A DNA stretch of 61,150 nucleotides from Lachnospiraceae bacterium (GCA_017458765.1 JAFSZZ010000110.1:1-61150); one strand, 5' to 3'; positions 2,775 through 60,582 are shown, numbered from the stretch's first letter. Notes: generated by a model from the sequence alone, not told the origin. Translations and numbers: made by a program.

Positions 2775-3894
2775 CCTTTACCGTCCACTTCACTATCCTC
2801 CTGTCACCCTTTTGAGTGACACGGGGTTCCACCATTCCGTATTCAGGTATTATCCACGAAACATTTGCTCCCCGGCTTTTCATACCTTCATACATATCAA
2901 CCATATCCTGCTTCCTGTAATTCGAAATGATAACGAATTCGGTATTATCGTAAGTCTTCTCCTGTTCCAGCCGTTTCAGCGTTTCTATCAGCTTAAGCGC
3001 ACTCTGCCCCTTATCTATCCGCGAAAGAGCCAGCTCGATATTCCCAAGATGCGAAAAGTCAGCGCCGGCTTCAATACTGACAACGTTACCGGTAACGGCA
3101 TCAAGCCCGTTTGTATATAAAGCCACCGGTATGTGTTCCGAAATGAACCTGTCCGCAAGGGCGGCCGCTATCCTTATCTCCTCTTCAATGAAAACATCCT
3201 CATGCCATCTGATATGACATTCCATGTTAAGGCAGAGGACTATACGCTGTGAAAATGTTGTGTTGAATATATTGACTCTTAACTCGGAGCTTCTCGCACT
3301 TGCCTTCCAGTTTATTCTGTTCATCGGATCATAGGACTGATACTCACGTATTCCGGCGAATTCAAAAGGATCTTCGTTCCTTCTGATGTTGTCTGTTATT
3401 TCTCCCATCAGTTCACGGGCAGAGACGGGTACTTCCTCAGGCGGTATCCGCAAAGGCAGTACACACACCATTTCTTCATGCTTAAGCGACTTAAGCATCA
3501 TACCCTTCAGGAACAGATCCTTACAGATAACATCCATACCGTTCATCCTGAAGCAGCCGCGCTGTGTACATACGAATCCATATTTACGGGTAATCCTTCT
3601 GTATGGAAGCAGCGAAAAATAATCATTCCTGTAATACTGATCCGTCACAGCCGAATTATCGTTTGATTTAAACCGGAAAGTCCTTGTGATCGCGAACTTG
3701 ATCTGTATAACCGGCAGAGGAAGCCATTTGTCATTGCTGATAACCTCTATCAGTTCATTTTCCTCTCCCGCCCTGACTACCGGTTTTTCGAAATCAACAG
3801 TAACGCTCAGGCCTCTGTCCCACAGTCTTTTATACAGATACATCTGGGCAAAATACATGAGGATTCCGCATAGCAGTGCTATAAACAGCTTCAT
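2764..3894 (-). CDS. DUF58 family protein (vWA-like partner of MoxR)
   Basis: N-terminal TM helix and a central ...EFAGIREYQSYDPMNRINWKASAR... motif typical of DUF58. There is a 4-nt overlap with moxR. Confidence 0.75.
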   Translation of the reverse strand: MKLFIALLCGILMYFAQMYLYKRLWDRGLSVTVDFEKPVVRAGEENELIEVISNDKWLPLPVIQIKFAITRTFRFKSNDNSAVTDQYYRNDYFSLLPYRRITRKYGFVCTQRGCFRMNGMDVICKDLFLKGMMLKSLKHEEMVCVLPLRIPPEEVPVSARELMGEITDNIRRNEDPFEFAGIREYQSYDPMNRINWKASARSSELRVNIFNTTFSQRIVLCLNMECHIRWHEDVFIEEEIRIAAALADRFISEHIPVALYTNGLDAVTGNVVSIEAGADFSHLGNIELALSRIDKGQSALKLIETLKRLEQEKTYDNTEFVIISNYRKQDMVDMYEGMKSRGANVSWIIPEYGMVEPRVTQKGDRRIVKWTVKDAR

Positions 3895-55861: not shown

Positions 55862-56008
55862 TCAGTCTTTATTATCAAAGCCTTTTGATATAAGATATGC
55901 TCCTACATCATCCCAGCCATGTTTATACGAAGGTTTGCCATAGAAAACTTTCAAATCCGCTTCTACCAAATCAAACGAATACTCCCGTAAAAATGTATCA
56001 ACCGGCAT
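55862..56008 (-). pseudogene. vapD: Truncated vapD-like (Cas2-fold endoribonuclease) gene, N-terminal half only
   Basis: The 48-aa ORF MPVDTFLREYSFDLVEADLKVFYGKPSYKHGWDDVGAYLISKGFDNKD* follows the VapD pattern FDL...L.K.YG.P.....DD....L...GF, then stops. It lacks the QGSVY half. Confidence 0.45.
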
Positions 56009-56318
56009 AAGAGCATTCAAACCCCATTTCTCTTTCTACATCTATCATATTACTTCTTAATCCATTATCGTCTGTCTCCCATCTGGTTACATACTTCATA
56101 AACCAAGGCATATCTTCCAATAATGATATTAAAAAGCTTTCATCTCCAAATTTTGATGTAGATAACTCTTGCAGAAGATTTCCATCCTCATCCTTCTTAT
56201 TCGTTTCAACTATATAGCTGTCAATGCTCTTGACTGCAGTTTCCAATTCCTCGTATTTATCACCAAGACCATCCTGAACCATTTTATTTGTATTTATGGA
56301 GAAAAGCATCCTAAACAT
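55998..56318 (-). CDS. Hypothetical protein upstream of and overlapping the vapD-like gene
   Basis: ATG 56318 with a GAGGTGAT RBS. The stop overlaps the vapD-like ATG (ATGCCGGTTGA). No recognisable family. Confidence 0.4.
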   Translation of the reverse strand: MFRMLFSINTNKMVQDGLGDKYEELETAVKSIDSYIVETNKKDEDGNLLQELSTSKFGDESFLISLLEDMPWFMKYVTRWETDDNGLRSNMIDVEREMGFECSYAG

Positions 56319-56489
56319 CTGTATCACCTCTTCTCTATTATCAACCCGATTAACGAACGTCAAAAAATATCCTTCTGATTTAATCATATAATACAATAGT
56401 ATTACGAGTGTTTCAAGCCTGGCAGATATGAGGATCATGTATATTTACAAATAATTGACACACTCACGCTGTAATGATATTATAATAAA

Positions 56490-56582
56490 TGAATGGGCAT
56501 TATCCGTACAGCAACGGTTAGCCCTCAATGTTTTTGGTTAGAATAACCGCCAAGTTTGTCAGGGCTAGGCGGTTATTTTGCG
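56490..56582 (+). ncRNA. Candidate antisense sRNA A (antitoxin-like), convergent with small ORF 56573-56659
   Basis: TTGACA-N17-TATTAT at 56455-56483. Terminator aataaccgcc / ggcggttatt plus TTTT at 56542-56580. No ORF. Confidence 0.45.
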
Positions 56583-56659
56583 TTCTTACCAAGTTTGTAT
56601 CCCACTCCGAACACTGTTAGTAACAATGTCATCAATGCGGCGAATTCTATTATGGTCAT
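56573..56659 (-). CDS. 28-aa hydrophobic peptide (type I toxin-like), MTIIEFAALMTLLLTVFGVGYKLGKNAK
   Basis: ATG with GAAGGGA upstream, a single TM helix and a basic tail. Paralogous to the 57356-57457 peptide. The stop codon lies in the sRNA A terminator. Confidence 0.45.
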   Translation of the reverse strand: MTIIEFAALMTLLLTVFGVGYKLGKNAK

Positions 56660-57355
56660 CTTGCATCAGTCCCTTCTGTCTTATTTCCCCATTTCGATTC
56701 CTCCATATCGGGGGATGAAACCGGTCTACAGTGTCAGAGGGCAACCGCCACCGTTTAGATAATACCCAATCACTATATAAATGTACCAAACATAGGTTTT
56801 GGTGTCAATCATTATTTATACGCAATGCGATATCTGGCAAAACTGCCGTATCTAAACGGATCTCCCTGTATCATTAACCTGTAACTTCATAACTGCAGCA
56901 GGGGGGCTTTTGTAACAGTTTGTGGTACCATCCCACGTATTTTCATGACTTCTACCCTCTTGTTCCCATTAAATCTTATGGTTTACCTCACTATTTCTTG
57001 GAAAGCCGCTTCTCTTTTCTTTTGCCCATGAAATCACACCTTCATACGCCAATGTGTACAACTAACACATTTCTACTAACACCAGCTAATTAACTACACG
57101 GGAAGTTATCCCTCCCGCTTTTCAATTTCTACTATCAACCACAATTATAAATTCCTGATTTACAATCACCCTCTCATCACGTTATTCTATCTTCTGGATG
57201 TCACATTTAGCACGAAAGTGTGGTGGACGGCAGGCTTTCCGGATTTTATGTTCGGAGGTCTTAAGTATTCAATTGTAATAACTATACCTCCGATCTTGGA
57301 ACTGTAGTACTGGAGCTCACGCTCTTAGTCTTCACCCGGAAAGGAGGGAGTCCAT

Positions 57356-57457
57356 ATGTTGACGCTTGAAGGATTAATCGCAGTATTCAGCCTTGTGCTG
57401 ACAGCGTTCGGTCTCGGATACGCCATCGGACGCAACGATAGTAATACACAAGAATAG
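57356..57457 (+). CDS. 33-aa hydrophobic peptide (type I toxin-like), MLTLEGLIAVFSLVLTAFGLGYAIGRNDSNTQE
   Basis: Strong RBS AAGGAGGGAG 6 nt upstream and a single TM helix. Shares E5 and LT.FG.GY..G[KR]N with the 56573-56659 peptide. Confidence 0.55.
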   Translation: MLTLEGLIAVFSLVLTAFGLGYAIGRNDSNTQE

Positions 57458-57546
57458 CCGCCCCGGTGTGCAAAACTTAGGCGGCTATCTCGTATAGTCT
57501 TTATCTAAGGATTGCCTGCCGTTTAGCCGGTGGCATCCTTTTTTCT
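57447..57546 (-). ncRNA. Candidate antisense sRNA B (antitoxin-like), convergent with small ORF 57356-57457
   Basis: Minus strand TTGACA-N18-TATTAT-like box (TAATAT) at 57554-57583. Hairpin atagccgcc / ggcggctat at 57454-57488 followed by TCTTGTGTATT. Confidence 0.4.
57508..57545 (+). terminator. Terminator of the small-ORF B mRNA
   Basis: aggat(t)gcc / ggcatcct stem followed by TTTTTTC. Confidence 0.45.
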
Positions 57547-57727
57547 TGTCTTTATATTAACATCTACCGTAGAGCTTTGTCAAACTGAAAATACGAACTT
57601 GTTGCCAAACACTTGTTAACATTTTTGCAACATTTTCTTTACAATTTCTTAATAGAGTCCTTAATCAATGTGGTCAAATTATGTTCGTGGGGTCAGGTAC
57701 CAAGGTATGTTTCAAAAATGACGGTTA

Positions 57728-59284: not shown

Positions 59285-59300
59285 CTGTTCTGAATAGTTA
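59285..59300. repeat. Solo family-A terminal repeat ctgttctgaatagtta supplying the stop codon of the HTH gene
   Basis: Identical to 14543-14558 and 42605-42620. Confidence 0.75.
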
Positions 59301-59924
59301 CAACAAATCTTCGATATCGCAGTACAGTGCTCTGCTCAGCCTTACTACCACATCGGTACGCGCATGAGCAATATTCTTCTGTCCCTGTTCATACTGCTGT
59401 ATCGTCCTTAAGGGTACACCCGTTTTGTCGGCAAGCTCTTTCTGACTGATACCGGCATATTTTCTCAAACGCTTGAATGTCTGCTGTTTCCTGATATCAC
59501 TGAGTTCATTGATGTAGTCTACAAATTGTGATATATCCATCTCATGATACTTGGGATACATTAAATACAGGTCAGATATAGGGGCTATACTGTTGATATA
59601 CTTGAATGATCTGGTACTTATCCATTGATAATATGAAAGGCTCCATCCAATCCAGTATTCACAGCTCCTTTCAATCGAAAAATCATGATCGTGAAGCGGT
59701 TCACTGCGATATTCACTTATCACAGCGTAAGCCAGCTCATGCCCGGACATTCCGGCAATAACAGAAGATTCTCCTCTCTCAAATCTCGAAGAATAAGGGG
59801 AATCAAGAAACATATCATAGAATCCGGAAAGATCATACCCATAAGAAGAAACGGCCACATCAAACATATGTGCCATTGACGTCTGAGCTTTATACAGCAA
59901 TGTCTCATCATACGAACAGATCAT
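59298..59924 (-). CDS. Two-domain protein: unknown N-terminal domain + C-terminal XRE-family HTH
   Basis: C-terminus LRKYAGISQKELADKTGVPLRTIQQYEQGQKN is a classic HTH_3. 17-nt overlap with the upstream DUF3990 gene. Confidence 0.75.
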   Translation of the reverse strand: MICSYDETLLYKAQTSMAHMFDVAVSSYGYDLSGFYDMFLDSPYSSRFERGESSVIAGMSGHELAYAVISEYRSEPLHDHDFSIERSCEYWIGWSLSYYQWISTRSFKYINSIAPISDLYLMYPKYHEMDISQFVDYINELSDIRKQQTFKRLRKYAGISQKELADKTGVPLRTIQQYEQGQKNIAHARTDVVVRLSRALYCDIEDLL

Positions 59925-60582
59925 CCCGCTTCATCTCCCTGTCAATTATCTGCATCAGATATATCTCGCCTTTGCTCCACGGTTTACGGCGTAGATCTCT
60001 GTACTCCTCTCTGGCCTTAGTATCTCTCATTTCCTTAGATGGATAATACCTGGCAGAATAAGCTCTGTAATAACCCTTAAAGATAATCCTCTCAAAAGCC
60101 CTCTTACTGATCAGCACAACCTGATCTCCGAGATTTCCGAGCAAAAGAGCCTTCTCCAGAGTTCTGATAGAGATCGTATTATTCAGAAAATCCTGTGCAA
60201 ATGAAAAATAAGAGTCGTCTGCACGGTATCCTTTTATCACATCAAAGGATCTGTAATCAAAACTAAAGTTATCCCTTAAATACCTTATTGCCTCACTACC
60301 GAAATCGGACTGTATATCAAAGCGCCTGTTTTCCAGTAGAATCCACAACCAGTCAAGAATACAGTACTCGGAACTGTTAAGATTAAGGATATGAAGGCCA
60401 TCCGTATCGAGCGTATACTCATTGACGTACCCATCATTATCAAGATTCACGGCCCACTCTCCGGCCAGATCAAAATCTTTAGTACAATAAAATCCCGAAC
60501 CGTAATCATTATTTGGCTTTCCTGATCCGAACTTTGGCTTTTCAATTTCCCTTGCGGATCCATGATACAATATCTCATTCAT
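59908..60582 (-). CDS. DUF3990-family protein
   Basis: The N-terminus MNEILYHGS...DYGSGFYCT...AGEWA matches my recollection of the DUF3990 signature. Confidence 0.6.
   Translation of the reverse strand: MNEILYHGSAREIEKPKFGSGKPNNDYGSGFYCTKDFDLAGEWAVNLDNDGYVNEYTLDTDGLHILNLNSSEYCILDWLWILLENRRFDIQSDFGSEAIRYLRDNFSFDYRSFDVIKGYRADDSYFSFAQDFLNNTISIRTLEKALLLGNLGDQVVLISKRAFERIIFKGYYRAYSARYYPSKEMRDTKAREEYRDLRRKPWSKGEIYLMQIIDREMKRDDLFV

Follow-up and report, generated by a model that had tools for sequence, protein, structure and literature searches.

Gene callers place nothing in a 1.3-kb gap within a 61,150-nt stretch of DNA from a Lachnospiraceae bacterium (GCA_017458765.1, JAFSZZ010000110.1:1-61150; the whole stretch is called the window here, and positions count from its first letter), and we questioned whether two small modules in this gap, A and B, constitute toxin-antitoxin (TA) loci. 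A sequence-only reading of the window had described them as diverged, divergently oriented copies of a type I TA-like module, each combining a small hydrophobic peptide, a convergent RNA overlapping the 3' end of the peptide mRNA, and nested pairing between the two ends of that mRNA. Following this up across related genomes, we consider it probable (roughly two chances in three, 0.68) that each module is a type I TA-like locus of a previously undescribed family. In the family layout, a moderately strong promoter would yield an mRNA of ~290-350 nt with a structured 5' untranslated region (UTR) of ~110-160 nt and one open reading frame (ORF) for a single-pass membrane peptide. A stronger convergent promoter just past the mRNA 3' end is predicted to drive an RNA fully complementary to the 3' UTR and the last codons, and this antisense RNA would end at a hairpin containing the stop codon.

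Both modules sit in a single gene-free stretch of ordinary chromosome with transporter genes on either side, and no long ORF occurs within 56439-57727. The two peptide mRNAs are divergently transcribed, and the modules are collinear from promoter to promoter when aligned in mRNA sense. A joint pattern of peptide motif plus hairpin matches the window exactly twice (0 matches in 100 shuffles), and a search for the conserved 3' element revealed no third, cryptic copy in the window. The 1.29-kb region is identical in other metagenome contigs of the same organism and so carries no strain-level information. The sequence-only reading proved sound on the individual elements: both ORFs and both stop-codon hairpins lie where it had placed them, and no sigma-70-like site between 55900 and 58000 scores above the two convergent promoters. 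It needed correction elsewhere. The 3' partners of the 5'-3' pairing double as arms of the mRNA's own terminator hairpin, and module A has a further, longer 5'-3' helix that had been overlooked.

In module B, the peptide-mRNA promoter (57159-57188, plus strand, TTTACA-18-TATTCT, with the TTTACA box also present in related loci L123-L127) places the mRNA start at ~57196, the first base of GGATGTCAC, and the predicted mRNA spans ~350 nt (57196-57545). The 33-aa ORF (MLTLEGLIAVFSLVLTAFGLGYAIGRNDSNTQE) occupies 57356-57457 on the plus strand behind the Shine-Dalgarno (SD) sequence AAGGAGGGAG at 57341-57350; its exact peptide was absent from the protein collection searched. The stop-codon hairpin (ATAGCCGCC/GGCGGCTAT, 17-nt loop, 57454-57488, both strands) is predicted to end the antisense RNA on the minus strand, where its U-tail is weak. 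That RNA would start from a TG-extended promoter at 57583-57554 (minus, TTGACA-18-TAATAT, 10/12), cover ~104 nt (57547-57444, minus, ends predicted) and fold into two hairpins (z = -6.8). The mRNA terminator hairpin with its T-run (57509-57545, plus; terminator scan 57516-57535) has as its arms GCCTGCCGT (57514-57522) and GTGGCATCC (57530-57538), which are also the long-range 3' strands. Their 5' partners, GGATGTCAC (57196-57204) and ACGGCAGGC (57227-57235), lie within 57196-57242 on the plus strand, and both proposed pairings were recovered (GGATGTCAC/GTGGCATCC with eight Watson-Crick pairs and one G-U; ACGGCAGGC/GCCTGCCGT with 9 of 9 pairs). The minimum free energy (MFE) fold of mRNA B reaches -127.9 kcal/mol (z = -5.2), and this 5'-3' panhandle appears in both the MFE and the centroid structure. 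The hairpin tcggaggt/acctccga was likewise found at 57252-57293 (plus), where an SD-like GGAGG pairs with an anti-SD CCUCC; in the MFE fold of the mRNA this CCUCC pairs instead with the real SD. Equivalents of this hairpin occur in L041, L124 and L125, and the B subtype is shared with Oribacterium sp. KHPX15 and five metagenome contigs.

Module A follows the same logic of 5'-3' pairing with very different sequence, as had been proposed. Its TG-extended peptide-mRNA promoter (56808-56780, minus, TTGACA-17-TACATT) aligns with the family toxin-mRNA promoter, and the predicted mRNA covers ~288 nt (56486-56773, minus, ends taken from promoter and terminator). The long-range 5' strands (56737-56767, minus) are homologous to columns 83-91 and 112-131 of the family alignment A4 described below. 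Helix 1 joins GGGTATTATC (56767-56758, minus) to GGATAATGCCC (56505-56495, minus), in RNA letters GGGUAUUAUC with GGAUAAUGCCC. The 5' strand of helix 2, AACGG..GCCCTC (56755-56737, minus), has the partners described earlier, CCGTT and GAGGGC, and its GCCCTC is also anti-SD. The 3' strands (GAGGGC TAACCGTT ... GGATAATGCCC, 56495-56526, minus) again form the mRNA terminator hairpin, and among the loci recovered the closest relative of this 3' element is found in Butyrivibrio sp. AE3009 (L095). The 28-aa ORF (MTIIEFAALMTLLLTVFGVGYKLGKNAK, 56573-56659, minus) encodes one transmembrane segment with a short basic tail and retains the family-invariant T..F..GY..G. The stop-codon hairpin (AATAACCGCC/GGCGGTTATT, 16-nt loop, 56542-56580, both strands) precedes TTTGCGTTCTT on the plus strand and is predicted to serve there as the antisense-RNA terminator. 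The corresponding promoter (56455-56483, plus, TTGACA-17-TATTAT, 11/12, TG-extended) would give a ~99-nt RNA (56490-56588, plus, ends predicted) that is complementary to the entire 3' UTR and the final codons of ORF A and folds into two hairpins (z = -3.3). For mRNA A the MFE is -103.2 kcal/mol (z = -6.9), with the panhandle in both the MFE and centroid structures.

Two further observations concern module A. Its 5' UTR holds a strong SD, GGAGGA (56704-56699, minus), followed after 6 nt by a mini-ORF, ATG GGG AAA TAA (56692-56681), at a place where the family consensus reads TACATAGAAATCC..GGAAATCT and has no such ORF; the mini-ORF could be a decoy, a leader ORF or chance. A 10-nt direct repeat, CCAAGTTTGT, at 56550 and 56589 is about what chance would give in 1.25 kb.

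We assessed how far this architecture extends beyond the window. With tblastn we detected a 50%-identical unannotated ORF on a Lachnospira eligens megaplasmid, between two MATE transporter genes, and another locus on a human-faecal phage contig, both with their elements in the same order as in the window modules. A pattern search (T.F[GA].GY..G with a downstream CCGCC...GGCGG hairpin) over one-genome-per-species contigs returned at least 120 stretches, and together with tblastn it identified at least ~55 further loci that share the architecture. The hairpin core CCGCC/GGCGG and five peptide positions (T, F, G, Y, G) were fixed by the pattern and therefore carry no independent information. About half of the 120 listed matches were discarded as chance occurrences in GC-rich genomes or as the C-terminus of an Oscillospiraceae membrane protein. 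The latter comprise ~20 loci (e.g., L017, L023, L044, L052 and L079; Oscillospiraceae and other Clostridia) at the 3' end of a conserved and unrelated ~340-aa membrane-protein gene, which ends ...SKFLMV.ALAAIGLNTSF..MKK.GI.PM.HGFIISALVV.VA... before a CCGCC/GGCGG terminator.

The family peptides measure 28-36 aa, with the consensus MLTIE.LIAV.SLCLT.FGLGY.IG..N.K.QK and T..F..GY..G invariant. The peptides of A and B (39% identical) had been taken as paralogues, and they do appear as diverged members of one family; the shared Glu5 that had been cited in support is not conserved across it. Carriers within the Lachnospiraceae include Lachnospira, Coprococcus, Agathobacter, Blautia, Butyrivibrio, Acetatifactor, Waltera, Hespellia and Oribacterium; others are Anaerovoracaceae and Mogibacterium, Saccharofermentans and Evtepia, and the Negativicutes Schwartzia and Phascolarctobacterium. 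Carriers that can be cultivated include L. eligens ATCC 27750 (NC_012780.1, around 160,258-160,347), Butyrivibrio sp. AE3009, Oribacterium sp. KHPX15 and Blautia wexlerae. A profile built from the two window peptides matched 240 clusters (50% identity; E <= 1e-3) among 1.84 billion cluster representatives, with members that occur on up to 1,000 or more contigs named just "hypothetical" or "uncharacterised protein".

A megaplasmid and two phage contigs carry copies (two phage matches in all, with a single locus in IMG/VR), and neighbouring genes differ from locus to locus. Genomes carry one to three copies, the multi-copy cases being the window (two), L010 (a tandem), L100 and Coprococcus UMGS2033 (three). 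In L010 (4050-4853, an uncultured Lachnospiraceae metagenome-assembled genome) two complete units lie in direct tandem, 414 bp from start to start, with identical peptides, near-identical UTRs and the first antisense promoter just upstream of the second toxin promoter. Decayed copies lack the toxin 5' part and retain the antisense side (L059, L033, L050 and L122). L033, L050 and L122 have lost the 5' UTR or the promoter, and in L059 (~3380-3600, Oribacterium sp. NK2B42) the promoter, the 5' UTR and the first third to half of the ORF are gone, while the 3' part of the ORF, both hairpins (at the stop codon and beyond it) and the antisense promoter are intact; L059 may represent an orphan antitoxin gene. 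Outside the coding part, sequences differ very little between families, and even between classes, of Bacillota, suggesting horizontal spread. Multiple copies, decayed copies and megaplasmid or phage locations are typical population features of TA-like loci.

The small hydrophobic ORF, whose absence from homologous loci would have counted against the proposal, is conserved across these at least ~55 loci from many genera and varies as a coding sequence does. Pairwise differences among family members at the three codon positions were 0.29/0.17/0.58, and 45% of differing codon pairs were synonymous in frame, compared with 9% and 4.5% in the other two frames. The search pattern could have biased this result, so the test was rerun on the 13 codons upstream of the motif, which are free of it; differences were 0.37/0.23/0.63, and 35% were synonymous in frame versus 8.7% and 2.8% off frame. 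Start, stop and length are conserved, and a strong, correctly spaced SD precedes the ORF in almost all loci. Each peptide has one strongly hydrophobic segment (best 19-aa Kyte-Doolittle mean >2.0) and a short polar tail. Judged by this substitution pattern, the 28-36-aa ORF is a real gene under purifying selection.

The mRNA structure was assessed on alignment A4 (47 sequences), in which two alternative structures, long-range pairing and local hairpins, were scored. In helix 1, the 9 nt that open the mRNA (GGUGCUACC) pair with the 9 nt that immediately precede its U-rich tail (GGUAGCACC); seven of the nine pairs have changed on both sides, and 98.1% of cells are paired. One-sided changes in this helix left 18 wobble cells versus 8 non-pairs. 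Helix 2 (CGGUUAGCC with GGCUAACCG) is 96% paired with two of nine pairs changed on both sides, the 5'-UTR hairpin has five of six such pairs, and the stop-codon hairpin (helix 5) shows four covarying pairs outside its pattern-fixed core. All five summary measures for the long-range structure beat 500 of 500 shuffles, a result to be read with the relatedness of the sequences in mind, and sliding the partners by 1-3 columns dropped pairing to 26-51%. In the competing local structure, the 5' hairpin had no compensatory pair among six and the local terminator one among seven. For the B subtype the test has low power, with four complete sequences only; all of them keep both helices 100% paired, and a single compensatory change (C-G to U-A) and a single wobble change occur in each helix. 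The 3' half of the stop-codon hairpin loop (AAACUU, mRNA sense) is conserved in most loci, and the non-coding parts, chiefly GGCTAACCGTCTATCGGTAGCACC, exceed the ORF in nucleotide conservation. MFE folds of the full-length mRNAs of A, B and the typical member L010 all contain the panhandle, a long-distance 5'-3' pairing of the hok/aapA type in the sense of a functional analogy only. By this comparative evidence, the panhandle, the UTR hairpin and the stop-codon hairpin are maintained by compensatory change, which bears out the nested pairing and stop-codon hairpin first proposed from the window.

The antisense gene is conserved as well. A promoter scoring at least 10/12 lies on the opposite strand, at the same aligned position downstream of the ORF, in 42 of the 47 aligned loci (shuffled controls mostly scored 7-8), with a TG extension in 40; its place is the one expected from the window. 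The toxin promoter scores below it across the family. Predicted antisense RNAs range from ~90 to 105 nt, with a family median of ~90 nt, and their 5' end (GGUGCUACC..CGGUUAGCC) is by construction nearly equal to the mRNA 5' end. At the level of sequence, the loci thus appear to have two of the features of a type I system: an antisense gene, complementary to the mRNA, that carries a separate promoter and terminator, and a hydrophobic, membrane-directed peptide of less than ~60 aa (28 and 33 aa in the window). On these grounds the label type I TA-like is justified, and that the loci act as toxin and antitoxin is what we infer from them.

The 5' element appears to have a second partner in the mRNA. 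The helix-2 strand and adjacent bases are complementary to the SD region as well. In B, the match joins 57224-57242 to 57336-57354 in a duplex of -22.9 kcal/mol (z = -4.2), an energy attained by 0 of 500 shuffles. The family median for the duplex of 5' element and SD is -14.4 kcal/mol compared with -8.9 kcal/mol for shuffles (median z -2.1), and four of the seven pairs of the anti-SD helix are compensatory in A4. A bound antisense RNA was modelled by barring the 3' UTR from pairing, which lowered mean predicted SD accessibility from 0.28 to 0.21 (A, 0.57 to 0.16; L010, 0.21 to 0.01). The effect is small and model-dependent, and the masking result is therefore a hint only.

From these elements a working mechanism can be sketched. 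The panhandle would bury both mRNA ends and give a stable, long-lived message, and it would occupy the 5' element (the helix-2 strand plus CCUYCUCC/GCCCUC) that is complementary also to the SD region. The antisense RNA may dock first on the large, conserved 16-17-nt loop of the stop-codon hairpin and then zip along the 3' UTR, displacing the mRNA 5' end. The resulting ~100-bp duplex would become a substrate for RNase III, and closure of the ribosome-binding site would follow from release of the 5' element. Upon loss of the short-lived antisense RNA, the stable panhandle mRNA would be translated and the peptide would damage the membrane. We put forward tentatively, and with more doubt than conviction, that three partners compete here for one sequence, a mechanism not described for type I systems. 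Paired with the mRNA's own 3' end, the 5' element would form the stable panhandle with the ribosome-binding site available; paired with the SD region, it would block translation; and the antisense RNA, its 5' end a near copy of the mRNA 5' end, would pick between these states by capturing the mRNA 3' end. If this is true, a 3'-binding antisense RNA stops translation ~250 nt upstream via strand displacement within the mRNA, and losing the antisense RNA or losing the 3' end would have opposite outcomes. This competition would, if proved, be the new part of the system.

Several points weigh against the TA interpretation or parts of it. The promoters, the RNA ends and the interaction pathway are predictions, and all loci were gathered through a single pattern, in which the hairpin core and five residues of the peptide are set in advance. 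Relatedness among the sequences inflates the shuffle tests and makes the paired accessibility test overstate its significance. The anti-SD helix is paired in 78.7% of cases across the family and no more, and the SD is mostly paired already in the free mRNA (mean accessibility 0.28), with masking adding little. Many members, A and B not among them, have a T-run (TTATTTTT) after the stop-codon hairpin in mRNA sense, so part of the mRNA may end there without the 3' strand of the panhandle. The C-terminal tail of peptide B (RNDSNTQE) is not basic, unlike the tails of most type I toxins, and the link to mobile elements is weak, since phage matches number two only.

Some of these points would equally suit a small, conserved membrane protein that serves in housekeeping or regulation (e.g., an accessory subunit or transporter modulator), tuned by its cis-antisense RNA and free of any addiction, killing or defence function. 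The architecture would then be as described and the peptide no toxin, its toxicity being our deduction from sequence. The position of the window modules between transporter genes on an ordinary chromosome, the L. eligens copy between two MATE transporter genes, the scarcity of phage matches and the non-basic tail of B all fit such a role. However, gene neighbours are not conserved, so no partner protein is evident; loci occur in one to three copies per genome, with tandem duplicates and with decayed copies that keep the antisense side; and the near-identity of non-coding sequence across Bacillota suggests horizontal spread. The elaborate translational lock-down and an antisense promoter stronger than the mRNA promoter are moreover typical of toxin genes, and we regard a non-toxic membrane protein as unlikely, if the most serious of the alternatives. 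We think it improbable that the mRNA ends at the stop-codon hairpin and that the second hairpin exists in the antisense RNA only. The inverted repeat would then reflect an antisense 5' end made to resemble that of the mRNA, e.g., for a shared protein or RNase, with no pairing in cis. The near-identity of the two 5' ends suits this idea, as does TTATTTTT in many members, which could make the stop-codon hairpin a bidirectional terminator. Yet the sequence that follows this hairpin in mRNA sense is no T-run in A (CTAACCAAAAAC) or B (CTCGTATAGTC), its 16-17-nt loop would make it a poor terminator, and in B the second hairpin, followed by TTTTTT, is a canonical terminator. Where one side alone of helix 1 has changed, the result is mostly G-U-compatible, as pairing and not sequence identity would require, and the panhandle dominates the MFE and centroid folds.

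Two other readings were rejected, and we give either of them very little credence. Inverted repeats of ~25 bp around a ~290-bp unit that is multi-copy and spread across taxa would befit a miniature transposable element, in which the complementary segments are terminal inverted repeats at the DNA level and the ORF and promoters are incidental. But conservation runs past both repeats into the two promoters, the ORF has a coding substitution pattern, and the repeat arms accept G-T mismatches yet keep RNA pairing; no target-site duplications were seen, and copies within a genome have diverged (39% peptide identity between A and B), unlike the near-identical copies of active elements of this kind. 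The high nucleotide conservation of the non-coding parts, chiefly GGCTAACCGTCTATCGGTAGCACC, might point to a purely non-coding structured RNA with the ORF as a by-product, were it not that variation is dominated by the third codon position (synonymous 35-45% in frame versus 3-9% off frame), that a strong and correctly spaced SD is present in almost all loci, and that start, stop and length are conserved.

The surroundings of the modules were also inspected. The spacer of ~350 bp between the divergent peptide-mRNA promoters (56810-57158) contains no ORF, Rfam match or family-related sequence; it holds a short direct repeat, ATTTCTACTA(A/T)CA, at 57069 and 57125. Adjoining module A is a 146-aa ORF (55862-56438, minus) with no Pfam match, whose start is probably further in, at ~56315 (MFRMLF..., after GAGGTGAT), a promoter-like site (56416-56388) lying inside its annotated N-terminus. 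An overlapping ORF of 48-52 aa (55862-56020) follows, and the same pair (146 aa and 48 aa) is called in other contigs; as far as sequence can tell, it is a two-gene cassette. Overlapping genes at 59298-60582 (minus) encode a DUF3990 protein (224 aa) and a 208-aa protein whose C-terminus holds a Cro/C1-type helix-turn-helix; this pairing is also kept on a metagenome contig from the organism of the window (L129). Elsewhere, in a Blautia sp. (L083, 4171-6002), a group II intron (Rfam RF02005, 161 bits; RF00029) lies ~1-3 kb from a family locus.

In the human gut and the rumen, Lachnospiraceae and related bacteria rank among the most abundant groups. The family is found in many of their genera, often in several copies, yet it has been missed or labelled "hypothetical protein"; naming it would improve annotation and provide a covariation-supported RNA model for genome searches. 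Its members are candidates for roles in phage defence, element stabilisation or stress-induced dormancy in gut commensals, and they offer a compact system in which to ask how an antisense RNA at one end of an mRNA controls the other.

The suggestion that this may be a new family held against every collection compared. The two window peptides had no significant match in Pfam or NCBIfam. Searches of 29 family members against Pfam, PADLOC, PHROGs and PDB gave weak, non-significant matches only (E >= 0.014), mostly to other membrane proteins, and Rfam gave no relevant match in the window region at E <= 10 or in nine family loci at E <= 1. An Rfam porB match to the B hairpin (23.6 bits versus a gathering score of 35.1, E = 0.56) was judged to be chance. 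Profile comparison with hhalign gave probabilities of 0.3% for Fst, 0.4% for BsrG, 0.5% for TxpA and 9.6% for PepA1, for hand-entered versions of all four reference sequences; the earlier reading had likewise not recognised the peptide as Fst, BsrG or TxpA. Membership of the BsrG/BsrE/TxpA/YonT peptides found no Pfam or NCBIfam match at E <= 10, and that of Fst/Ldr no significant Pfam match, the Fst-toxin model presumably being included. The Hol-Tox profile was likewise without significant match, whether for 29 members in Pfam (E <= 10) or for the two peptides of the window in NCBIfam; Hol-Tox has an MTxxE-type N-terminus similar to that of these peptides. Our literature search found no paper on the family, and a small-protein census and a peptide-antibiotic paper make no mention of it. 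It may already be listed among the candidates of Fozo et al. 2010, whose supplementary tables reportedly hold >2,000 candidate toxins.

Among known systems, a 3'-side, partially overlapping antisense RNA is the norm in Gram-positive type I families (bioRxiv 10.1101/2021.04.14.439843), and SR4, which binds the 3' side of bsrG, recruits RNase III and also remodels structure to hide the ribosome-binding site (PMC5848175). Like bsrG/SR4, bsrE/SR5, txpA/RatA and yonT/SR6 of Bacillus subtilis, the new family belongs to the Bacillota and encodes a small membrane peptide, with a convergent 3'-side promoter whose predicted RNA covers the 3' UTR and runs into the last part of the ORF. At 100 nt, SR6 is similar in length, extended -10 boxes are shared, and the two-fold action from a 3' site that we suggest would resemble that of SR4. 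Unlike these systems, the family has no detectable peptide relation to them and no Rfam antitoxin match. To our knowledge, a covarying panhandle of the extreme 5' and 3' mRNA ends has not been described for the B. subtilis 3'-overlap systems.

For such a panhandle the comparison shifts to hok/Sok of enterobacterial plasmids and to aapA1/IsoA1 of Helicobacter pylori, in which 5'-3' long-distance pairing controls the message and loop-loop contacts begin antisense binding (PMC5416894). With these the new family would share mRNA folding as the main control of translation; unlike it, they are Gram-negative and their antisense RNAs target the mRNA 5' region. The antisense gene here is on the 3' side, and comparison with Pfam, NCBIfam and Rfam gave no match to hok or aapA; the peptides are unrelated, and there is no mok-like leader ORF. 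In hok and aapA1, 3' trimming strips away the 3' strand of the pairing and activates translation, whereas in the new family it would free the anti-SD element and not open the ribosome-binding site. The antisense RNA, being complementary to the 3' strand of the panhandle, must also compete with the mRNA's own 5' end, in contrast to hok and aapA1.

The par locus of pAD1 (fst/RNA II) resembles the new family in its Bacillota host, a peptide of ~33 aa, convergent transcription, and a hairpin near the ORF end that is the antisense terminator, with a loop as a plausible first contact. Beyond the terminator, par owes its complementarity to direct repeats in the DNA, through which RNA II pairs with the mRNA 5' end. 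In the new family the repeats are inverted instead, so that the two ends of the mRNA would pair with each other and the antisense RNA is similar to the mRNA 5' end.

Closer in taxonomy, clostridial type I systems combine small hydrophobic toxins with cis-antisense RNAs (PMC6563280, PMC5961336), and a 2019 review centred on C. difficile states that homologues of known type I toxins are not found in most clostridial species (PMC6563280). The new family shares its class, Clostridia, and this general design with the Clostridioides difficile CD2517.1/RCd8 group, and differs in having no match in libraries expected to carry those toxins. The C. difficile type I toxins are ~50 aa long with lysine-rich tails and form a different family. 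By sequence, then, the window modules represent a new family inside the known class of type I TA systems and outside every named family. The best reading of their layout is that of the Bacillus 3'-overlap systems with a hok/aapA1-like panhandle, which would unite two designs so far known from different phyla, the 3'-overlapping antitoxin and the 5'-3' panhandle.

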